Virus record (IMG/VR): IMGVR_UViG_3300029305_010146
Strand: one strand, 5' to 3'
From: an uncultured virus (IMG/VR IMGVR_UViG_3300029305_010146)
Lineage: Duplodnaviria; Heunggongvirae; Uroviricota; Caudoviricetes
DNA: 64,000 nt
A model generated the notes under the pieces. It did no database searches and was not told the DNA's origin. It was given only the letters and a program-made list of their open reading frames with translations. How positions within the stretch are numbered: position 1 is the stretch's first letter; every line of letters begins with the position of its first letter. This document shows, one piece after another, positions 6,642-58,990 of this stretch. Made by a program: the position numbers and the translations under genes.

Positions 6642-7568
6642 ATGAAGATTAATATTAAGGAAATCACATCAAAGGTAAACGGCGAAAGTGTTTCTGGTGT
6701 CGTTTATGTCAAAAATGCAAACATCAATGTTGCAAAAAATGGCAAGAAGTACATCCAAGGTCTTCTAATTGACAATAAGGAAAGTATTTTCTACAAGGTC
6801 TGGGGAGACTATATGGAAGCATTCCAAAAGGTTAATGCGACATCGCAAATTCTCTACATCGAAGGTACCGTAAATGTATTTAACGATACAACTTCTATCG
6901 TAATCACAAAGGCAATGCCTTCTAATGAAGGTTTGACCCCTGCCGATTTCATTACTGGTCACGACAGAGATGCCCTTGAAAGAGAATTCTACGAAATCAA
7001 TAAGCGTCTTCTGTCCCCTAATGCTTACGACATTTTGAATGTTATTGTTAGAGATAAAGTTAAAGACCGTTTCTTCATGGAATATGCTGGCATGACAATG
7101 CACGATGCTTGCCCCAGCGGTGTAGCAAATCACACCGTTAAAATGCTTCGCATTCTTGAGACAATCATCAATAACGACCCTCGCCTCACACCGTGGACAG
7201 ACCTTTTGGTTCTTGGTGTTGATTTGCACGATGTCGGCAAAATTAAGGAAATGTACAATGGAAACTATCGCAAAAACTCCTTTGTTACACACAGAGAATT
7301 TGGAGTTGAATTACTGATGAATAACAAGGACTTTATTATATCTCAATTCAATGACGATTTCTATTATCGTCTTGTTTCCATTATTCGTGGGCATCACGAT
7401 GAATTTGAGGAAAAGGCAAAGACTGTATATGCATATATCACTTTTTTGATTGATATGCTTGATTCTCAAGTTTCTCATATTCTGGATTGTGTCGAAGCAG
7501 AAAATCTCAAAGAAGAATCTTCTGGCGACAGTTATATCCAATCTCACGACCACAAGTTGTATGTATAA
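6642..7568 (+). CDS. yhaM: YhaM/Cbf1-like 3'-5' exoribonuclease (OB fold + HD domain)
   Basis: N-terminal OB-like 'AKNGKKYI...KVW'. HD motifs MHDA...NHT, LHDVGKIKE, GHH and IDMLDS. Confidence 0.82.
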   Translation: MKINIKEITSKVNGESVSGVVYVKNANINVAKNGKKYIQGLLIDNKESIFYKVWGDYMEAFQKVNATSQILYIEGTVNVFNDTTSIVITKAMPSNEGLTPADFITGHDRDALEREFYEINKRLLSPNAYDILNVIVRDKVKDRFFMEYAGMTMHDACPSGVANHTVKMLRILETIINNDPRLTPWTDLLVLGVDLHDVGKIKEMYNGNYRKNSFVTHREFGVELLMNNKDFIISQFNDDFYYRLVSIIRGHHDEFEEKAKTVYAYITFLIDMLDSQVSHILDCVEAENLKEESSGDSYIQSHDHKLYV

Positions 7569-7615
7569 AAAATGCGGGAGAAAATCTCCCGCATACCAAA
7601 ATATAGGAGGTTATT

Positions 7616-8440
7616 ATGGCAAATAAAAAAGATTCATTGGGCGATAGAATGAAGTCCAATTACGAAAATAGAGCAAAAACTTATCTCGTTCGCAGACAAC
7701 CTGTAATTCTGCGACTTGACGGTAAGGCTTTCCACACTTTTACAAGAGGATTAAAGAGACCTTACGATGAAATCTTTCACAAGGCAATGAACGATACACT
7801 TATGACCCTTTGTGAAAATATTCAAGGTTGCAAAGTTGGTTATACACAGTCTGACGAAATTACCCTTCTTTTGACTGATTATGATACCCTAACTACCGAT
7901 GCTTGGTTTGACTATGCAGTGCAGAAAATGTGTAGTATCGCCGCTTCAACGGCAACCCTCGCATTCAATAAATCCCTCGCAAAAAGTGTTGATGACTTTT
8001 TCAATACCAAAATTTCTGGTGTTGAAGAGTTGTCTGCTGATAGCGAAGACTTTAAGTATTTCAAGACCCTTATGAAGGCAGTAAATACTGGTGCGATGTT
8101 TGATTGCCGTTGTTTCAATATTCCAAAAGAAGAGGTCGTAAACTGTTTCATTTGGAGACAGCAAGATGCAACAAGGAATGCAATTCAAATGCTTGGTCAG
8201 TGTAATTTTTCACACAAAGACCTAAATGGCAAATCTTGCAATGACATTCAAGATATGCTGATGGTGCAAAGAGGAATTAACTTTAACGATATGCCAACCG
8301 AATTTAAGAGAGGAGTCTGTTGTGTTCGCACAGAACAAGTATCAACTAACAGCACTACTCCTACGAGGATGAAGTGGACTATCGACAAAGAAATTCCAAT
8401 TTTTTCAAAAGATTTCAACTATATTGAAAAATATATTTAA
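7616..8440 (+). CDS. thg1: tRNA(His) guanylyltransferase Thg1-like protein
   Basis: RLDGKAFHTFT, YTQSDEITL, FDCR, WRQQDATRNAI and FKRG motifs. Confidence 0.93.
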   Translation: MANKKDSLGDRMKSNYENRAKTYLVRRQPVILRLDGKAFHTFTRGLKRPYDEIFHKAMNDTLMTLCENIQGCKVGYTQSDEITLLLTDYDTLTTDAWFDYAVQKMCSIAASTATLAFNKSLAKSVDDFFNTKISGVEELSADSEDFKYFKTLMKAVNTGAMFDCRCFNIPKEEVVNCFIWRQQDATRNAIQMLGQCNFSHKDLNGKSCNDIQDMLMVQRGINFNDMPTEFKRGVCCVRTEQVSTNSTTPTRMKWTIDKEIPIFSKDFNYIEKYI

Positions 8441-8447
8441 TTAACTA

Positions 8448-8476
8448 TTGACAAAAGGAAATCTTTGTGATATAAT
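8448..8476 (+). promoter_or_regulatory. Sigma-A-type promoter of tRNA-Gly
   Basis: TTGACA-N17-TATAAT with extended -10 TG. Confidence 0.8.
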
Positions 8477-8506
8477 ACGGATGCCAGCGAAAGTTGGCAT
8501 CTATAT

Positions 8507-8583
8507 GCGGGTGTAGTGTTTAACGGCCAGCATGCCTGCCTTCCAAGCAGGAGGTACGGGTTCGAATCCCGTTACTCGCTCCA
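8507..8583 (+). tRNA. tRNA-Gly(TCC)
   Basis: Cloverleaf; anticodon arm CCTGC-CTTCCAA-GCAGG; GGTTCGAATCC; encoded CCA. Confidence 0.95.
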
Positions 8584-8602
8584 AAAATTTTTTTAAAAAG
8601 TC

Positions 8603-8631
8603 TTGACAATTAGATTTTTTTATGTTATAAT
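8603..8631 (+). promoter_or_regulatory. Sigma-A-type promoter for the tRNA-Met/leader/tRNA array unit
   Basis: TTGACA-N17-TATAAT with extended -10 TG. Confidence 0.85.
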
Positions 8632-8638
8632 ACCATAT

Positions 8639-8714
8639 AGCGGGATAGAGCAGGTGGTAGCTCGTTTGGCTCATATCCAAAAGGTCGTTGGTTCGACTCC
8701 AACTCCCGCAACCA
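8639..8714 (+). tRNA. tRNA-Met(CAT), initiator-like
   Basis: CAT anticodon; unpaired A1:A72 and A11:U24 initiator features; CCA end. Confidence 0.88.
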
Positions 8715-8761
8715 GTGACGAAAGTCGCATATTAAATCTTGACAGAAAGGAAGTATTCAGT

Positions 8762-8869
8762 ATGACTGTTTACAATGCAATTCAAAAAATTCAACAGTGT
8801 AAACAAGTAGGCATGTTTAAGTTTATTAAACGTGTCCATTCGTCATGCCATGAATACAACCACTGTTAA
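8762..8869 (+). CDS. Putative 35-aa attenuator leader peptide MTVYNAIQKIQQCKQVGMFKFIKRVHSSCHEYNHC
   Basis: SD-like AAAGGAAG upstream. It lies in a structured leader before a terminator and is enriched in I/Q/K/C/V/M/F. Confidence 0.6.
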   Translation: MTVYNAIQKIQQCKQVGMFKFIKRVHSSCHEYNHC

Positions 8870-8934
8870 AGGTTACGTTCTGCCTGCAATATAAAACTGG
8901 TAGATTACGGTTAAAAATTTTTAACAAACAAGTA

Positions 8935-8976
8935 GCGGTTCTGTATCCATGGGATGCAGAACCGTTTTCTTTTTTT
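8935..8976 (+). terminator. Intrinsic terminator (candidate attenuator) immediately before the tRNA array
   Basis: GCGGTTCTGTATCC-ATG-GGATGCAGAACCGT followed by a long T tract, 4 nt before tRNA-Gln. Confidence 0.85.
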
Positions 8977-8980
8977 ACAT

Positions 8981-9056
8981 TGGGGTATCGCCAAGCGGTA
9001 AGGCACAGGACTTTGACTCCTGCATTCCGAAGGTTCGAATCCTTCTACCCCAGCCA
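8981..9056 (+). tRNA. tRNA-Gln(TTG)
   Basis: CAGGA-CTTTGAC-TCCTG arm; CCA end. Confidence 0.95.
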
Positions 9057-9061
9057 TATAT

Positions 9062-9137
9062 GCACCTGTAGCTCAGTTGGAAGAGCACTCGACTTTTAAT
9101 CGAGGAGTCATGGGTTCGAGTCCCATCAGGTGCACCA
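9062..9137 (+). tRNA. tRNA-Lys(TTT)
   Basis: CTCGA-CTTTTAA-TCGAG arm; CCA end. Confidence 0.95.
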
Positions 9138-9142
9138 AATAT

Positions 9143-9218
9143 GGAAAGGTAGCTCAACAGGTAGAGCAGTGGACTGAAAATCCACGTGTAGTCGGTTCGA
9201 CTCCGTCCCTTTCCACCA
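9143..9218 (+). tRNA. tRNA-Phe(GAA)
   Basis: GTGGA-CTGAAAA-TCCAC arm; CCA end. Confidence 0.95.
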
Positions 9219-9221
9219 TAT

Positions 9222-9295
9222 GGCGATGTCGTCAAGTGGTAAGACAGCAGTCTGCAAAACTGTTACCCCCAGTTCGAATCTGGGCATCGCCTCCA
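9222..9295 (+). tRNA. tRNA-Cys(GCA)
   Basis: GCAGT-CTGCAAA-ACTGT arm; U73 discriminator; CCA end. Confidence 0.93.
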
Positions 9296-9301
9296 CTCTA
9301 T

Positions 9302-9377
9302 GCATTCGTAGCTCAACTGGGAGAGCACTCGACTCTTAATCGAGGGGTCGTGGGTTCAAACCCCACCGAATGCACCA
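9302..9377 (+). tRNA. tRNA-Lys(CTT)
   Basis: CTCGA-CTCTTAA-TCGAG arm; CCA end. Confidence 0.95.
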
Positions 9378-9382
9378 AATAT

Positions 9383-9459
9383 ACACTCGTAGTTCAGTTG
9401 GTTAGAATACTTGCTTGACATGCAGGGGGTCGTTGGTTCAAGTCCAATCGAGTGTACCA
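9383..9459 (+). tRNA. tRNA-Val(GAC)
   Basis: CTTGC-TTGACAT-GCAGG arm; ACACTCG/CGAGTGT acceptor; CCA end. Confidence 0.92.
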
Positions 9460-9465
9460 TTATCT

Positions 9466-9541
9466 GCGACATTAGCTCAGTTGGCAGAGCACCGTGCTGA
9501 TAACGCGGGGGTCACTGGTTCAAGTCCAGTATGTCGCACCA
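9466..9541 (+). tRNA. tRNA-Ile(GAT)
   Basis: CCGTG-CTGATAA-CGCGG arm; CCA end. Confidence 0.94.
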
Positions 9542-9545
9542 ACAT

Positions 9546-9621
9546 GCAATATTAGCTCAGTAGGTAGAGCACCGTGCTGATAACGCGGGGGTCGTTGGTT
9601 CAAATCCAGCATATTGCACCA
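9546..9621 (+). tRNA. tRNA-Ile(GAT), second copy
   Basis: Same anticodon arm as 9466-9541 with a different acceptor stem (GCAATAT/ATATTGC); CCA end. Confidence 0.93.
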
Positions 9622-9697
9622 GCACCATTAACTCAACTGGTAGAGTGCTTCCCTTACAAGGAAGAAGTTATAGGTTCGAGTCCTATATGGTGTACCA
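9622..9697 (+). tRNA. tRNA-Val(TAC)
   Basis: CTTCC-CTTACAA-GGAAG arm; abuts the previous tRNA; CCA end. Confidence 0.93.
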
Positions 9698-9702
9698 TAT
9701 AT

Positions 9703-9778
9703 GCCACGGTAACTCAGTTGGTAGAGTATCGGCCTCATATTCCGAAAGTCAGCAGTTCGAACCTGCTCCGTGGTACCA
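9703..9778 (+). tRNA. tRNA with CAT anticodon (elongator Met or Ile2)
   Basis: TCGGC-CTCATAT-TCCGA arm; paired 1:72; CCA end. Confidence 0.88.
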
Positions 9779-9782
9779 ACTT

Positions 9783-9858
9783 GGGAAGATAGCAAAGATG
9801 GTCTATGCAACGGACTGAAAATCCGAGGATACTGGTTCGATACCAGTTCTTCCCACCA
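9783..9858 (+). tRNA. tRNA-Phe(GAA), divergent second copy
   Basis: CGGA-CTGAAAA-TCCG arm; GGGAAGA/TCTTCCC acceptor; CCA end. Confidence 0.88.
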
Positions 9859-9893
9859 AAAAGCATTGGATTAAATCCAATGCTTTTCTTTTT
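9859..9893 (+). terminator. Terminator of the tRNA array
   Basis: AAGCATTGGAT-TAA-ATCCAATGCTT plus T tract. Confidence 0.85.
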
Positions 9894-9960
9894 CTATTGA
9901 CATTTGCAGTAAAATATATTATTATATTATATAACATTTAACATTTAAGGAGTGAAATAA

Positions 9961-11280
9961 ATGCAAAATAACTCTAAAAATAATATTCCTTTTGAAGAAG
10001 AGTTACATGCTGACAATATTGACACCAAAAAAATCGATGAATGGGCAATGTGTTATGAAAACTCTCCAGAAGAAGACGAACAAGAGCGAAAAATGGAAGA
10101 GGAATATAAACAGCAACGCAAAGAAGCACTAAAAACACTGTTTAAAACACCAAAATACAAAAGCAAAAAAACACAAAGAAATGCCTTTGTTCTAAAAGTT
10201 ACGATTTTAGCAATGCTATTATCTCTTGCTTTCGGCACATGTGGTGCTTATCTTTACACACATTATATTGGTGGTGCTATAACGGTTCAAAGGGGCGATG
10301 TAACAATAAATGTCGTTGAAAAAAATGACCCACCAACTTTAGAAAACTACGACCCCAATTCAATTCCATCCGTTGTTGCTAAAACAGAAAACAGTGTTGT
10401 TGCTATCACGACAAACACCATTTCCAAAAACCCAATGATAGGCCAATACATTCAAGAAGGCGCAGGTAGTGGTGTAATTATTTCAGAAGATGGTTATATC
10501 ATCACGAACACACATGTGATTAGTGAAGCGACAAGCATTATTGTCAGACTACACAATGGTCAAGAATACACTGCTTCTATTGTTGGTTCGGATATAACAA
10601 CTGACATAGCGGTGATTAAAATTGAAGTAAAAGGTTTGTCTCCGATTGTTTTCGGAGATTCCAAAAACATTGTGGTTGGACAGACGGTTATCGCAATTGG
10701 TAATCCACTTGGCGAGTTAGGAGGAACTGTTACTTCTGGTATTATCTCTGCAAAAGATAGAGAATTAACAATCAATAAGCAAAATATGAATTTACTTCAG
10801 ATTTCTGCCGCAGTAAACCCTGGCAATTCTGGTGGTGGATTGTTTAATTTAGATGGCGAATTAGTAGGAATTGTAAATGCTAAAAATTCTGATGTAGGTA
10901 TCGAAGGACTTGGTTTCGCCATTCCCGCAAACGATGCACAAGATGTTGCCAAACAACTAATTGAAAATGGCAAAGTCACTGGGCGTCCACAATTAGGCAT
11001 TTCTGTTGTTGAAATTTCCAACACGGCAGAAATTTACAACTATGTATCTGACCCAATTTATCCATATTTAGATACAACGGGCCTTTATGTAATTGATGCC
11101 ACAACCCCACACTTATTCCTTGGCGATAAGATTATTGCAATTGATGGTCAATCGATGGATACTTATGACGACCTTAAAGATTACATCAATACGAAAAAGG
11201 TCGGAGATACAGTTTCCGTTACAATTTCCAGAAGCAAACAAATTCAAACATTAACCATTGAACTTACAGAAAAACCTTGA
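9961..11280 (+). CDS. htrA: HtrA/DegP-like serine protease with PDZ domain
   Basis: TM anchor; GSGVII, TNTHVI, DIAVIK and GNSGGGL triad motifs; C-terminal PDZ. Confidence 0.95.
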   Translation: MQNNSKNNIPFEEELHADNIDTKKIDEWAMCYENSPEEDEQERKMEEEYKQQRKEALKTLFKTPKYKSKKTQRNAFVLKVTILAMLLSLAFGTCGAYLYTHYIGGAITVQRGDVTINVVEKNDPPTLENYDPNSIPSVVAKTENSVVAITTNTISKNPMIGQYIQEGAGSGVIISEDGYIITNTHVISEATSIIVRLHNGQEYTASIVGSDITTDIAVIKIEVKGLSPIVFGDSKNIVVGQTVIAIGNPLGELGGTVTSGIISAKDRELTINKQNMNLLQISAAVNPGNSGGGLFNLDGELVGIVNAKNSDVGIEGLGFAIPANDAQDVAKQLIENGKVTGRPQLGISVVEISNTAEIYNYVSDPIYPYLDTTGLYVIDATTPHLFLGDKIIAIDGQSMDTYDDLKDYINTKKVGDTVSVTISRSKQIQTLTIELTEKP

Positions 11281-11445
11281 TTTTAAGTGCCACATTTTGT
11301 GGCACTTTTTCTATTGACATTATTATAAATCTATGGTATAATAACAACAAAGAAAATATTTTTTGAAGTTTTTATTTTGTTATTATACAATATTTATATC
11401 TTTATATAAATTTATAAGGAGAAATTTCATAAAGGAGGAAGATAT

Positions 11446-12468
11446 ATGAAAGATATTATCCAAAGACCAGAATATGACTTTTTCAGAACAAATCCCGACA
11501 TTTGTGATAAGGTTTTATTGCTGACATATGGCGGAAGTATCGCCTATGGCACAAACAATGAAAATTCCGATACCGATATCCGTGGTGTTTGTCTCAACAG
11601 AAAAGAAGATATTCTCGGTTTCAACGAAATGCACCAGTTCGAACAATTTATTGACCCAATAACCGATACTGTAATTTATTCTTTGAATAAATTAACAAGA
11701 TTGCTTATTTCGTGCAACCCAAACACAATTGAAATTCTTGGTTGCCGTCCCGACCATTATCACATGGTCAATAAGTACGGTCAAATGTTGCTCGACAACA
11801 AAGAATTGTTTTTATCTCAAAAAGCAGTTAATTCTTTTTCTGGTTATGCAAGACAGCAATTGGCACGTCTCGAAAATGCCTTGGCGCGAGATAGACTTGC
11901 TCAAAGCAAAAAAGAAATGCACATCCTTAATGCTTGCCAATCAACAATTGACGCTTTTGAAAAAAGATATTCTTTTAACCCAGCAAAATTCATTGAACTT
12001 GTGTTGATGGACTCTGAAAAAGAAGATTTTGACAAAGAAACTTTCGTTAACGTCACTCTGCATAACGTTCCTTTGAGAGAATTTGCTGGTATGGCAGCAG
12101 ACCTTGCGAACGTTGCAAAATGTTATGATAAACTAAATCACAGAAATAGCAAAAAAGACGACAATCATCTCAACAAACATGCAATGCACCTTGTTCGTCT
12201 TTATTTGATGGGCATTGATATCTTGGAAAAGGCTCAAATCGTAACCTATCGTGCCGACGACATTCCTGAATTGATGGGTATTCGTAACGGAAAATATCAA
12301 AAAGAAGACGGAACTTATTACGATGAATTTTTTGAAATGGTCAACGAGTATGAAAAGCGTATCCAATATGCCGCAAAACATACTGTTTTGCCGCCTGAAC
12401 CAGACTATAAAAAGATTCACGAAATGATTTCTGAAATCAACTATCTTACTGTTGTAGATAGAATTTAA
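11446..12468 (+). CDS. Pol-beta-superfamily nucleotidyltransferase (RlaP/YcgL-like)
   Basis: GGSIAYGTNNENSDTDIRG (GS...DxD), NPNTIEIL and KHAMHLVRL motifs. Confidence 0.85.
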   Translation: MKDIIQRPEYDFFRTNPDICDKVLLLTYGGSIAYGTNNENSDTDIRGVCLNRKEDILGFNEMHQFEQFIDPITDTVIYSLNKLTRLLISCNPNTIEILGCRPDHYHMVNKYGQMLLDNKELFLSQKAVNSFSGYARQQLARLENALARDRLAQSKKEMHILNACQSTIDAFEKRYSFNPAKFIELVLMDSEKEDFDKETFVNVTLHNVPLREFAGMAADLANVAKCYDKLNHRNSKKDDNHLNKHAMHLVRLYLMGIDILEKAQIVTYRADDIPELMGIRNGKYQKEDGTYYDEFFEMVNEYEKRIQYAAKHTVLPPEPDYKKIHEMISEINYLTVVDRI

Positions 12469-12482
12469 GGAGGAAAGTATTT

Positions 12483-13433
12483 ATGAAAATAACACCAGCA
12501 TTAAGAGAAAGATTTTGCAAAGATTTGCAACTTCCTATCAAAATTTTCACTGACCCGTATTTTATGGAAAGACTCGTGCTTTATGACATTCACTTTGGAT
12601 GTTGGGAGAAATATATTGATTTCGAAAAGATGCTCGAAGATTATGCAGATGAACAAGAATACTTCGAAGCATACAATTCGTTAAAAGAAACGGTTATTCA
12701 ATATTTATTAAATAACCCAGATTTCACATTCTTTTCCCAAACGGAAGACATGTCCAAATTTACAATTCCAAATCGAAGTTTGCCCAAAAACTCAATTTAT
12801 AAGCAAACTATGGTAGGAAAGCACTTTGTAAGTTTTGATTTGTGTAAAGGTAATTTTACAGCACTTCATCATTATAACGAAAAGATTTTTGACGGTGCTC
12901 ACACCTATGAAGAATTTTTATCAAAATTTACAAACAACAAACACTTTATCGAAAGCAAATACATTCGTCAAGTGATTTTTGGCACAGTTAACCCAAAGAG
13001 ACAAGTTCGCTACGAAGAGTATCTTATGAATCAAGTTCTTGATGTCATATTAGAAAAATTCGCAATAGAGAAAATTGCCTACTTTTCAACAGACGAAATC
13101 GTTGTGGAGTTGGATGAAAAATTATCTGAAACATCAGAACTATATGCCTTTATTTCGAACACTGTAAATCATTTTATTGATAACGGAATTACCCTCCGTG
13201 CAGAAGTCTTTGAATTAGACTATATCAAAGAATATGATACCTACATCAAAAAGGTATATTGCAAAATGTTCCAGTCCAGTGGCGATGCAATCAAAAAAAG
13301 CGAGTTGTTGGTTATTAAAAATGCAACAAATCTAACAATGCCTTTTGTACTCCGCCATTTGTATAAGTTACCTCCTAACGAAAACGATAATGTTTTTATT
13401 CATGAAGGTAGACTTGCCAAGTTTATCGAATAA
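12483..13433 (+). CDS. Hypothetical protein, possibly a divergent palm-domain polymerase/nucleotidyltransferase
   Basis: Strong SD; directly downstream of the nucleotidyltransferase; acidic motifs SFDLCKGNF and FSTDEIVV. Confidence 0.6.
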   Translation: MKITPALRERFCKDLQLPIKIFTDPYFMERLVLYDIHFGCWEKYIDFEKMLEDYADEQEYFEAYNSLKETVIQYLLNNPDFTFFSQTEDMSKFTIPNRSLPKNSIYKQTMVGKHFVSFDLCKGNFTALHHYNEKIFDGAHTYEEFLSKFTNNKHFIESKYIRQVIFGTVNPKRQVRYEEYLMNQVLDVILEKFAIEKIAYFSTDEIVVELDEKLSETSELYAFISNTVNHFIDNGITLRAEVFELDYIKEYDTYIKKVYCKMFQSSGDAIKKSELLVIKNATNLTMPFVLRHLYKLPPNENDNVFIHEGRLAKFIE

Positions 13434-13509
13434 CAACAAAAAGTGAGAAGAGCAATCTTCTCACTTTTTCTTTCTTGACTTATATAAACATTATAGTTAA
13501 AATTATACT

Positions 13510-13770
13510 TGTATATAGTAATATATACATCTAATGCCCATTTTTATGTATGCTTTTATAGCATGCCAAACAGGTTTTGAAATTTAGCCCGAAAATTTCA
13601 TATGAATCGATAATTCTGCACAGAACCGATTTGAAAAGTGTGCTTGTTGTGGAATAACCGCAAACACAACAATATCAGTTTGTGACCGCAAACTGGCGGT
13701 ATGCATTTATGGCGAATTGGTCATTCGCCTTGCATGATTCCAACTTTCGAAAGAAAGTTGGAATTTTTTT
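13510..13770 (+). ncRNA. Candidate multi-hairpin small RNA
   Basis: TTGACT-N17-TAAAAT at 13475-13503, six or more hairpins, terminator TTCCAACTTTC-GAAA-GAAAGTTGGAA-T7, and no ORF with an SD. Confidence 0.6.
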
Positions 13771-13972
13771 CTTTTTAATACTTGACTTTTTAATTTTATT
13801 TGTTTATTCTATATGAGGTTGAGCAAAAAGCCCAACAAAATATAAATTATAAAAATTTCTTTCAAATACTTGACAAAGAAAATTTTATATATTATATTTT
13901 CAATACAGCAACGGTAAAACACCCGTTGCGAAATTAAAACATAAAAGAAATTTTTAAAAGGAGTGTTTTACA

Positions 13973-16827: not shown

Positions 16828-17880
16828 ACACTTCTCGTAAGAGAGTGATTGGTAGTCACCACCAAGTTCGAAAGAACATAATGCGCTTCGGCGGTCTGCT
16901 GGGAACAGACGTGAATATCGCTGGAAACAGCGATTGTTTTTGTCTGCGGAAACAAAGGCAAAAACCTATGTCGCTTTAAGCGACAAATGTTCGCAACGGT
17001 CTCGTCCGCAAGGATGCTGCCAAGTACGAGCAAACTTGCTCGAAAGAGCAATTGATAAGTTCTCGCAAGAGTTAAACTTATCCAGATGTCTTTTAACCGA
17101 CATCTCGCTACCTTCGGTAGCAAAAAAGAGTTTCGATTTCAAAACTCTGTTCTCTTACAGAAGGTGTGAAAACACCTGTCGTGTTTAACACTCGATGTTT
17201 TAGAACGAAGCGATTTGCAGAAATCGGTTTTGTACAAACCAGCGGAAATCTCCATTCCACTACCCAAGTTCATTTTTGCGACGGCGAAACAGAACATAGC
17301 AAATTCTGATGAACAACGGAGAAAAATCATAAAACAATTGCCGTTAATGTTCAGTTTTATGTTGTATTAAAAACTCGGTGCAGAGAACCTTTGTCGGGTT
17401 GCCGAGGCATATTGAATGATGTGTTGCTTCTGATAAGGATTACTTTTTAGGGGACAACATCCGAAGTGCAGCGATGCAGTTCGGAAAGACGGAAACCGTC
17501 AATATCAAGATATGTCGCTCTCTCTTTTCGCTAACAAACACACAGTTCTTGTGGCGACAACAATTGACGCTCTCGGTGAGAGAATAAACCTGCAAGTGTC
17601 GTGGTGGAACACGGTAGACTACAGGAAATCCAAAACAATGTCGTTTGCAGTGAAGCGAAGAAATTCGCGTATAACACAAGTTTATGGTCAAAGTAGCCCA
17701 ATGCAACAATTAAAGAAATTAAGTATTTAATTATTCAAATTAAAAAATTCTTTGAATTATAAAAACTTGCCGAAAGATGGGTGAAATGTGCGAGTAATCA
17801 GTCTCGTATGAGCATTATGGAACTTCGGTTCAAGACAAATAGCCAAGGGTCGCTCCCAAACGCTCGGATTTGCCTTCTCA
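16828..17880 (+). ncRNA. Large structured ncRNA, GOLLD-like (tentative)
   Basis: No credible ORF; GC higher than flanks; many GNRA/UUCG-capped hairpins. The 3' blocks (GGTGAAA...GAGTAATCAGTCTCG, AGCCAAGGGTCGCTCCC) resemble GOLLD as I recall it; unverified. Confidence 0.6.
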
Positions 17881-17964
17881 TTAGTGTAATATGTTAGAAG
17901 TTAAGAGATAGTAAGATGAAAGTCTTCTAATACAACATAAAACTGAACATTAGCATCAAAAAGC

Positions 17965-29736: not shown

Positions 29737-30849
29737 TTATCCTGTAATATAGTTTCTCAAATTCTGTGCCTTTGGCGAATTACGTAATTTAATAATTGCC
29801 TTTGCTTCAATCTGTCTTACACGCTCACGAGTAATTCCAAGGAGCAAACCAACATCTTCAAGTGTTCTTGCTTTACCTCCATCCAGACCATAGCGATAGA
29901 TAATAATCTTCTGTTCACGGTCAGACAAACCATCGAGCATATCACGAACACCTTCTGCCAATGCATTCTGCATAAACTCATCAGCAGGAGATAATGTATT
30001 GTTATCAGGAATAAAGTCGCCTACTTCACCATCTTTATCATCGCCCACTGTTGCATTGATAGAAATTGGGTCCTGAATAAGTTGGAGAGTTTCAGTAACT
30101 TTTGCCTGCGATATCCCAGTAATTTGAGACAACTGCTTAACAGTTGGTTCACTCGCATGTTTACTGATATAGTCATTTCTTGCTTTCTGAACTTTATTTG
30201 CCTGTTCACTTACATAAATAGGTACTCGAATTGTTCTTCCGATATCGCTAATTGCTCTCTTGATTGCTTGCTTAATCCACCAAGTAGCATATGTAGAAAA
30301 TCGGAAATTTTTTGTGTAATCAAATTTTTCAACAGCCTTCATAAGACCGATATTGCCCTCTTGAATCAAATCAAGGAAAGCAAGACCATAACCACGATAA
30401 TGCTTTGCGATGTTTACAACTAATCGAAGATTAGAAGTAGTGAGCTTTTCTCTCGCCGCCTCATCTCGTTCTTCCTGTACGAGTCTCGAAAGTTCTTGTT
30501 CTTCCGTCTTTTTCAAAAGCGGATATTTAGAAATTTCTTTCAAATAAACTTTTACAGCATTAACTTGTGCAACATCAGATGACATTTCATCAAAACTCTT
30601 AACAGACTCTTCGTTTTCGTCGTCAATAGTTTTCATATAAGTATCGTCATCAACATCCGCATAATCCTCGATAACCGCAACATCCATATCTTCAAAGAAA
30701 TTGAAGATTTCATCCATTTCGTTAGCATCAATGCTCCTGATATTAAAACTCTTTTCAATATCATCCACAAAAATGTATCCGTCTCGCTTGCCTTTTTCTG
30801 CAAGTTTATTCATAATATCAGTGTTTTGAAGTAAATTTTTTCTTGCCAT
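29737..30849 (-). CDS. sigA: RpoD/SigA-like sigma-70 factor
   Basis: Regions 1.2 (VKVYLKEI), 2 ([33 protein letters not shown]) and 4 (TLEDVG...TRERVRQIE). Not in a dnaG operon. Confidence 0.92.
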
Positions 30850-58607: not shown

Positions 58608-58707
58608 TTTTGCTTTAAACCTATTGACAAAAAACAAAAAATATTCTATAATATCACAAAAGCAACTTTTGCTTCAAATGAAATAATATGTAAAGGAGTG
58701 CACAAAA

Positions 58708-58962
58708 TTGACTATTACAAGAATCAATGTAAAGAAGATTGAAGGTCATGAATTTTTAAAGGGTGTAGCAAGTATTGTCTTTGATGATGCATTTAAGGTG
58801 AGAGAAATCAAAATCCTTAAAGGCAAAGATGACGAATTGCATGTATCTATGCCTAACAAACCAGTTCCAAATGGTACATATGTTAGTCTTGCATACCCCG
58901 TTTCTAACGAAATTCGTGTCGCAATTGAAAATGCAATTATTGCTGAATATAACAAAATTTAA
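58708..58962 (+). CDS. spoVG: SpoVG family protein
   Basis: ITRINVKK...LKGVASIVFDDAFKVREIKI...VSMP...AYP...R..IENAII; SD AAGGAG. Confidence 0.88.
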   Translation: MTITRINVKKIEGHEFLKGVASIVFDDAFKVREIKILKGKDDELHVSMPNKPVPNGTYVSLAYPVSNEIRVAIENAIIAEYNKI

Positions 58963-58990
58963 AATAAAGGCGAAATATTTTCGCCTATAT

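Follow-up and report, generated by a model that had tools for sequence, protein, structure and literature searches.

We describe a cluster of tRNA genes on a 64,000-nucleotide (nt) stretch of DNA (the window) recorded as that of an uncultured virus of the Caudoviricetes (IMG/VR record IMGVR_UViG_3300029305_010146), and in particular the 266-nt spacer (8715-8980) that separates a tRNA-Met gene from tRNA-Gln, the first gene in an array of 11 further tRNAs. The window DNA is low in GC (~35%) and comes from animal gut or faeces. The spacer, which is the leader of the array, holds a 35-codon open reading frame (ORF) and ends in a strong intrinsic terminator (T1). An initial annotation, made without database searches, had read this arrangement as a ribosome-sensing attenuator, in which stalling on the short ORF would switch on the tRNAs downstream. 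The features of the locus, all on the plus strand, are as follows.

8448..8476 (+): promoter P1, TTGACA-17-TATAAT with TG, 12 of 12 matches
8480..8501 (+): hairpin with a GAAA-type loop at the predicted start of the P1 transcript, 5 nt upstream of tRNA-Gly
8507..8583 (+): tRNA-Gly (UCC), from the tRNA search
8603..8631 (+): promoter P2, TTGACA-17-TATAAT with TG, 12 of 12 matches
8639..8714 (+): tRNA-Met (CAU), initiator-like, CCA encoded
8715..8728 (+): 5-bp hairpin with a GAAA loop, right after the CCA end, -6.9 kcal/mol
8735..8874 (+): predicted Y-shaped rod, folding energy (dG) -42.1 kcal/mol, z -6.43, 0 of 300 shuffles as good
8746..8753 (+): Shine-Dalgarno-like sequence AAAGGAAG, 8 nt upstream of the ATG and partly within an internal loop of the rod
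8762..8869 (+): 35-codon ORF MTVYNAIQKIQQCKQVGMFKFIKRVHSSCHEYNHC, ATG start, the AUG paired in helix 8760-8766 x 8842-8848
8876..8925 (+): two small hairpins (8876-8909, 8910-8925), located after the stop codon and before T1, weakly structured, z -2.6
8934..8976 (+): intrinsic terminator T1, 15-bp stem (8934-8966), 3-nt loop, about -23 kcal/mol, U-tract
8981..9858 (+): 11-tRNA array (Gln, Lys-UUU, Phe, Cys, Lys-CUU, Val-GAC, Ile, Ile, Val-UAC, CAT, Phe)
9859..9895 (+): terminator T2, which closes the array
9897..9925 (+): promoter of the gene for an HtrA-like protease (gene 9961-11280)

The promoter that the initial annotation had placed at 8603-8631 is exact, with all 12 consensus positions and the TG, and the 35-codon ORF led by a Shine-Dalgarno sequence and the strong terminator also lie where they had been reported. 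The -10 box of P2 ends 7 nt upstream of the first base of tRNA-Met, which places the start site of P2 probably at or beside the mature 5' end of this tRNA. The tRNA has an A1/A72 mismatch and A11:T24, which we take from tRNA identity rules to be hallmarks of bacterial initiators, but only two of the usual three G-C pairs beside the anticodon loop. Since the third pair is missing, it is graded initiator-like, its initiator identity not being proven; the tRNA-fMet named earlier is present as a tRNA-Met(CAT) at 8639-8714, with the initiator assignment reduced to this grade. The tRNA-Met may arise at its mature 5' end, with RNase P not needed, and one of the neighbouring genes encodes a Thg1-like enzyme, which repairs 5' ends.

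The stem of T1 has 15 pairs, seven of them G-C, and is followed by the tail TTTTCTTTTTTT, the predicted form of an intrinsic (Rho-independent) terminator. The tRNA-Gln gene starts at 8981, 4 nt after the T-run of T1, and the tRNAs of the array lie 0-6 nt apart. The promoter scan found no sigma-70-like promoter between T1 and tRNA-Gln, promoters of other sigma factors being possible there, and the earlier description of 11 tRNAs 4 nt past the terminator with no promoter of their own is thereby confirmed for sigma-70-like sites. A TTGACA at 8739-8744, considered as an internal promoter, has TATGAC or ATGACT as its best -10 candidate and fails the scan, and ARAGORN detects no transfer-messenger RNA. 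Stable hairpins stand 4-5 nt 5' of tRNA-Gly (8480-8501, found as a 7-pair stem in the minus-strand scan and read from the sequence) and of a tRNA-Trp elsewhere in the window (58968-58986), comparable in place to T1 and tRNA-Gln; such hairpins immediately ahead of the leading tRNA of a unit may have a common role in processing or stability.

The spacer is predicted to fold to -85.7 kcal/mol, against a shuffle mean of -49.6 (z -7.7, 0 of 200 shuffles as good). The z of the rod, -6.43, lies below all of 120 random 140-nt windows drawn from this DNA, whose minimum is -5.69 and median -0.51. Within the rod lie the ribosome-binding site, the start codon, the entire ORF and the stop codon: its basal stem (8735-8766 x 8842-8874, -24.8 kcal/mol) has the ribosome-binding region and the AUG on the 5' strand and the last nine codons and the stop codon on the 3' strand, and its arms A (8767-8805) and B (8810-8836) carry the codons whose enrichment is described below. 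Three pairings that had been picked out by the initial annotation (CTGTT x GACAG, GTATTCA x TGAATAC and GTATGAC x GTCATGC) all occur in the minimum-free-energy fold.

Conservation of the spacer was judged from related strains. The metagenome contig L081, whose HtrA is 90% identical in protein, starts inside the array and lacks the leader; it gives the background against which the leader can be read. Between the window and L081 the divergence is ~1.3% in the tRNAs, 8.8% in terminator T2 together with the promoter and 5' untranslated region of htrA, 14.6% in the spacer between htrA and rlaP, and 21.6-39.7% at third codon positions. The leader itself is covered by contigs of four animal-gut sequencing runs (X7, X9, X10 and X17). 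X9 has the listed variants of L081 in the 3' part of the array (e.g., 9464, 9780, 9836, 9860, 9873, 9875 and 9903) and X10 has several of the listed array variants of L081, and over 9160/9404-9950 the two runs have diverged 3.3-3.7% from the window. At the diverged array sites X9 and X10 show a single variant per run, at a depth similar to that of the leader contig, and on this depth and single-strain coverage the leader contigs and the diverged array contigs were assigned to one strain.

In these diverged strains the 266-nt spacer changes by ~1% or less, as the tRNAs do. Positions 8730-9015 of X17 are fully accounted for, with one substitution (8858) and one deletion in the T-tract; the X10 leader has the changes at 8858 and 8958, the same T-tract deletion and at most one unlisted change, and the X7 and X9 leaders have at most 2-3 substitutions. 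The A>G change at 8858, in one of the rod's internal loops, turns Asn33 into Asp (N33D), the single change seen in the ORF, and the A>G change at 8958 turns an A-U pair of T1 into G-U. No third position of the ORF has changed in X17, where 7-14 changes are expected at the rate of the neighbouring genes. The 111 spacer bases outside the ORF are equally invariant, and the hairpins at 8876-8925 are unchanged in X17. Between the tRNAs of 9160-9860 there are 33 spacer bases, of which about 6-7 vary (counted from the listed variants); the tRNA region has therefore not simply been exchanged recently. Judged from these contigs, the whole 266 nt is under nucleotide-level constraint, like a structural RNA, which would put selection on the RNA; such constraint argues against a plain protein gene and fits a functional RNA or a cis-regulatory leader. 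Strain variation of this kind suits an RNA element no less than it suits a sensor peptide. L081 also differs from the window in having one tRNA-Ile (L081 109-184) where the window has two (9466-9621); the single copy is a chimera of the two, which indicates deletion by recombination between tandem copies.

The ORF has a further property, which had been the core of the initial annotation: residues 7-25 consist almost wholly of the amino acids carried by the downstream tRNAs (I, Q, K, C, V, M and F). This is borne out. The ORF has 21 of its 35 residues in this set, with 17 of 19 at residues 7-25 and 16 of 17 at residues 7-23, against a background of 32% among 12,857 residues of 30 large window proteins and 41% in random small ORFs. 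None of the 12,317 windows of 19 residues in the real window proteins reaches 17, and a scan statistic that optimises the position and length of the window gives 7.4e-6 for the ORF, beyond all 423 small ORFs of 30-60 codons (best, 3.9e-5). The enrichment also holds in the permutation test that had been suggested, where dinucleotide shuffles give 5e-5 (19-residue window) and 0.024 (entire ORF), and the remaining five frames of the same DNA contain just 9-14 in-set residues. Although spotted only in hindsight, the composition match is a genuine statistical anomaly. The earlier remark that the ORF uses codons matching the isoacceptor pairs is true but trivially so and adds nothing, because the tRNAs of the array read all codons of their amino acids.

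Within the window, 12 of the 215 ATG ORFs of 30-60 codons have a 5-mer Shine-Dalgarno core, and the expected number of such ORFs in a 266-nt spacer is 0.025. The ORF is thus probably not accidental, and its translation is probably real. The exact 35-amino-acid sequence, called by gene callers, is on record from five contigs. The peptide has Cys13 and a tail rich in Cys and His (H26, C29, H30, H34 and C35). A type I toxin mRNA would encode a hydrophobic transmembrane peptide and be opposed by an antisense RNA; here the peptide is polar and basic with no long hydrophobic run, and no minus-strand promoter was found in 8715-8980. One trait resembling such mRNAs is present, as the predicted fold closes the ribosome-binding site and AUG with the 3' end.

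Relatives of the leader were sought widely. Searches of GenBank phages (megablast and blastn) returned tRNA matches or short chance matches only, the exact T1 pattern has no match in IMG/VR, and the best E values in 80 loci around Thg1-like genes were 0.2 (blastn) and 0.14 (tblastn). There was no match by blastn or tblastn in 67 loci with a ROOL motif, and in 401 Oscillospiraceae genomes all of the 150 matches listed, out of 740, cover parts of tRNA-Met or tRNA-Gln only. The ORF found only itself among ~5.8 billion protein clusters (in a word-based search with candidates of 22-70 amino acids only), and its best score in the ESM Atlas was 0.77, below a useful level, with no convincing look-alike. 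The Rfam 15 covariance models gave no match of any family within 8715-8980 at E values up to 5, the T-box (RF00230) included. Covariance models of ROOL, GOLLD, Y-RNA-like RNAs and ribozymes did not match the leader; the matches obtained were to the tRNAs and, elsewhere in the window, to a ROOL RNA. A hammerhead or hepatitis delta virus-like ribozyme was likewise rejected, with no Rfam match and no CUGAUGA core in the sequence. In the available parts of the literature we found no attenuator or leader of a tRNA array, which is weak evidence that none has been described; terms for tRNA genes are absent from the accessible portion of one such source (PMC2965389).

How often a terminator stands in front of tRNAs was surveyed in 153 phage loci (2.27 Mb, 552 tRNAs in 392 tRNA units). 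A terminator-like hairpin lies no more than 45 nt upstream of 29 of the 392 units under a strict definition and of 64 under a loose one, many of these hairpins being the same site in related phages. Terminator followed by tRNA is thus a recurring design in phage tRNA regions. Among runs of three or more tRNAs, an upstream terminator was found in 0 of 37 (strict) or 3 of 37 (loose); T1 of the window passes the strict test, and a strong terminator before a long tRNA array is rare. In the arrays of five phages that carry Thg1, none of 60 spacers of 100-900 nt combines an ORF led by a ribosome-binding site with a strong terminator abutting a tRNA.

The reading that we favour, though only tentatively, is that the spacer is a conserved structured small RNA, with T1 as a valve for the 11-tRNA array. 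The RNA would be transcribed from P2 together with the initiator-like tRNA-Met, end at its own terminator T1 and be processed away from the tRNA. The selected entity would be the RNA itself, that is the rod, the two small hairpins and T1; in the rod, the 3' end of the ORF would pair with the ribosome-binding site and AUG and so lock them. Transcription of the locus would in every case yield tRNA-Gly, tRNA-fMet and the structured RNA, and the 11 distal tRNAs would be made only by polymerases reading through T1. The position of T1 suggests its role as a valve, as 11 tRNAs with no promoter of their own begin 4 nt after it. Read-through could amount to steady leakage from two very strong promoters; alternatively, it could depend on a trans-acting antitermination factor or on a polymerase, encoded by the element, that is insensitive to terminators. 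Translation of the ORF may take place before closure of the rod, which would make this a dual-function RNA.

Several points weigh against a small RNA with a valve terminator. T1 looks efficient, so mere leak may give little array RNA, and strong terminators were not found upstream of any of the 37 longer tRNA runs under the strict survey definition. The conservation argument uses few metagenome contigs, with strain linkage that is itself inferred, and the searches above yielded no relatives of the leader for covariation, only near-identical strains. All of the fold evidence is equilibrium prediction, and real attenuators act kinetically. The favoured reading leaves the enrichment of ORF residues 7-25 (p ~1e-3 to 5e-5) unexplained, and the low chance expectation of an ORF with a ribosome-binding site speaks for translation.

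A different reading of the same conservation, which we consider possible but doubtful, is that the spacer is a cis-regulatory gate answering to a non-ribosomal signal. The rod and the region 8870-8933 would bind a protein, from either the element or its host, or would modify the polymerase in cis as a processive antitermination RNA, such that T1 is passed only at a certain stage or state. This would suit an array that has no promoter of its own and lies behind a strong terminator, and it would suit the conservation of all 266 nt, the weakly structured 8870-8933 included. The rod, a stem bearing a pair of stem-loops and lying close behind a strong promoter, has a fitting form and place, but no Rfam family matched within 8715-8980, and the searches above gave no relatives for comparison. 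The element has its own sigma-70-family factor (29740-30849), yet no candidate antiterminator protein was identified, and nothing tells such a gate apart from a passive leak.

The ribosome-mediated leader-peptide attenuator proposed by the initial annotation is, in our assessment, unlikely. Ribosomes stalling at codons for scarce or cleaved Ile, Gln, Lys, Cys, Val, Met and Phe tRNAs would block T1 and so switch on replacements. The layout is canonical for such a device (promoter, short ORF led by a ribosome-binding site, intrinsic terminator, promoter-less genes), the composition of the ORF exceeds that of every small ORF and protein window compared, the combination of ribosome-binding site and ATG is improbable by chance, and the leader is strongly conserved. 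Phage tRNAs are also known to replace tRNAs hit by host nucleases, as described in the available parts of two sources (PMC10264068, PMC11555353). What the reading needs in addition is a terminator that responds to the position of the ribosome, and here the predictions stand against it.

A 30-nt ribosome footprint was blocked at codons 0 to 36 and the ensemble recomputed; the pair probability of T1 was 0.994-0.997 for every footprint position. In a nascent transcript folded up to 8950, before the 3' arm of T1 exists, the 5' arm of T1 is paired upstream with a mean probability of 0.56 without a ribosome, and a footprint anywhere on codons 5-25 leaves this value as it is, since neither strand of the basal stem is covered and the two can pair again around the ribosome. 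It shifts only with footprints on codon 1 or near the stop codon (range, 0.45-0.73). The claim that stalling switches the terminator thus finds no support in these models for exactly the codons in question. The antiterminator pairing that had been proposed, AACCACTGTT x AGTAGCGGTT (8858-67 with 8931-40), exists but has only -5.4 kcal/mol, engages 7 of the 15 arm bases and does not rise above chance. The best duplex of this region with the arm (8841-8875 x 8929-8950) reaches -10.8 kcal/mol, which is equalled by 17% of 2,000 shuffles and also by 17% of 2,000 random genomic 35-mers; an alternative partner of the arm (8886-8909) reaches -8.6 kcal/mol, equalled by 27% of shuffles. By folding and shuffling, none of the candidate pairings with the T1 arm gives an antiterminator better than chance.

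The stop codon lies 64 nt from the T1 stem, too far for direct occlusion by a terminating ribosome, and termination efficiency is described, in the part of PMC4824070 that is available, as rising with the distance from stop codon to terminator. The rod sequesters the AUG and part of the ribosome-binding site, no homologue of the leader was found in which co-variation could be followed, and the arrays of the five Thg1-carrying phages hold no comparable module. In these models, codon-specific stalling is not what opens T1. The equilibrium predictions remove the structural support for a switch but leave room for a kinetic mechanism. The attenuator thus retains its architecture and its composition, and its antiterminator switch is unsupported.

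One such kinetic version makes the ORF a multi-codon gauge of tRNAs, with 16-17 codons in a row for amino acids of the array, which would set the read-through of T1 or the stability of the read-through RNA. By one conceivable route, a stalled ribosome would hinder closure of the rod, and the 3' strand of the rod would then hold the terminator arm. This, too, is improbable in our view, and we give sensing by the ORF a small but non-trivial probability because the favoured reading does not explain the composition of the ORF.

That the spacer is an ordinary small-protein gene with its own terminator, its RNA structure and composition match being incidental, is highly improbable: it would account for the good ribosome-binding site, the ATG, the open frame and the gene calls on five contigs, but the ORF lacks the expected third-position changes and the one change seen is non-synonymous, the non-coding 111 nt show the same invariance, a structure of -42 kcal/mol buries the start codon, and neither the protein clusters nor the ESM Atlas supplied a relative.

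Leader-peptide attenuators of the trp, his, thr and ilvGMEDA type are the textbook regulators of amino-acid operons. The locus resembles them in its promoter, its short ORF, led by a ribosome-binding site and enriched for certain codons, its intrinsic terminator and its promoter-less downstream genes, and, as in the thr and ilv attenuators, several amino acids would be sensed together. It is unlike them in that the downstream genes are tRNAs and not biosynthetic enzymes, in that its ORF is enclosed in a rod of its own and does not overlap a 1:2/2:3 switch, and in that stalls on the enriched codons leave the predicted fold unchanged; moreover, no antiterminator rises above chance and the stop codon is distant from the terminator (for such attenuators of amino-acid operons see also PMC1183508, available in part). 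T-box riboswitches, which sense the status of tRNAs, likewise have leaders of 200-300 nt that end in an intrinsic terminator. The leader described here has no T-box match and no antiterminator, and tRNA arrays are not among the targets of T-boxes, which regulate synthetase and amino-acid genes.

Stable non-tRNA RNAs, such as those of the T4 tRNA cluster and the ROOL and GOLLD RNAs, are encoded beside phage tRNA genes. The leader RNA is like these in being a structured, conserved RNA that lies beside tRNA genes, or is co-transcribed with them, on a mobile element. It matches none of them by sequence or family model, is far smaller than ROOL, and has an ORF led by a ribosome-binding site and a terminator of its own. 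Terminators that are partial or controlled by antitermination are found inside phage operons and operons of tRNA or rRNA genes, as in the tR1/tL1 logic of lambda. As in that case, and as with the tunable terminators described as 'valves' in the accessible part of PMC9023263, a terminator between a promoter-proximal unit and a promoter-less distal unit would set or time distal expression. Unlike at lambda tR1/tL1, no antitermination factor or nut/put-like site was identified here. We file the locus as a terminator-gated operon with a structured leader RNA of no Rfam family.

The tRNA cluster lies in an island (6642-13433) that encodes, in order, an HD protein, a Thg1-like tRNA-His guanylyltransferase, the tRNA cluster, htrA, an RlaP-type nucleotidyltransferase and an ORF of unknown function (12483-13433). 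Among IMG/VR phages of 90-200 kb, 163 relatives of the Thg1-like gene were found. RlaP follows Thg1 in three of the 80 loci kept (directly in L061, after ~1 kb in L017 and after ~3 kb in L023), and a relative of ORF 12483-13433 comes next in L023 and L061. As Thg1-RlaP(-ORF) is compact in other phages, the tRNA cluster and htrA look inserted into an RNA-repair module here. HtrA and the HD protein have no relatives in IMG/VR or genome_contigs, L081 being the single good metagenome relative; a contig of 678,911 nt carries an HtrA of exactly this sequence.

A full-length ROOL RNA (RF03087) lies at 17350-17944 (+), 7.5 kb downstream of the array (340 bits, E 1e-77), in a 2.5-kb stretch without an ORF of at least 110 amino acids. 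A second candidate small RNA gene, with its core at ~13510-13776 (+) in the intergenic region 13434-13972, has a promoter at 13475-13503 (10 of 12 matches) and a terminator at 13736-13765. Its RNA of ~265 nt is predicted to be strongly folded (region z -9.4), and the intergenic region differs from L081 by 3.2% (17 of 538 bases), against 13-16% for the flanking genes. This unit has no Rfam match, no similarity to the rod of the leader and no ATG ORF of more than 25 codons. With the ROOL RNA and this second structured unit, the island is therefore rich in structured RNA genes.

The window also encodes SecA, the sigma-70-family factor mentioned above, which has region 1.1, signal peptidase I, prepilin peptidase, PilM and at least seven type IV pilin-like genes, one with a dockerin. 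Further products are MscS, a MacB-like ABC/FtsX fusion, PhoH/PIN, RecD2 and a protein with the N-domain of dATP/dGTP diphosphohydrolase; most of the other ORFs of the window, including one of 1782 amino acids, match no family. The window may belong to a huge phage, to an extrachromosomal element of another kind or to an unusual bacterium. SecA is just 50-60% identical to that of Oscillospiraceae and other Clostridia genomes, and the tRNA-Gln of the array is 91-95% identical to Oscillospiraceae tRNA-Gln among the matches listed. A short ORF (58708-58962), SpoVG-like by eye, stands behind a perfect promoter (58624-58652) and is followed by the hairpin and tRNA-Trp noted above, so that this tRNA seems to be embedded in an mRNA unit with the ORF. 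In one of the phage loci with a ROOL motif (L154), a tRNA with a CTA anticodon (8103-8178; Pyl according to ARAGORN, likely an amber suppressor) lies within an 18-tRNA region, which hints at stop-codon recoding in that phage.

The expression of tRNA arrays in phages and mobile elements has been little studied, and such tRNAs are now seen as a counter to defences that target tRNAs. The available text of the two sources on phage tRNAs as counter-defence (PMC10264068, PMC11555353) does not address how an array is switched on. In the element described here the array would be made only by passing a strong terminator, behind an RNA as conserved as the tRNAs themselves. If the RNA or the ORF senses translation status, this would be a new kind of feedback on tRNA supply. 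A gauge of the kind outlined above, if true, would report the usability of the array's tRNAs, e.g., after attack by anticodon nucleases, and turn on 11 replacements; it would be the first leader-peptide attenuator known for tRNA genes, located in an RNA-repair island with a Thg1-like enzyme, RlaP and ROOL. If there is no sensing, the spacer remains a candidate for a novel structured RNA that is transcribed together with an initiator tRNA and encoded near ROOL and RNA-repair enzymes.

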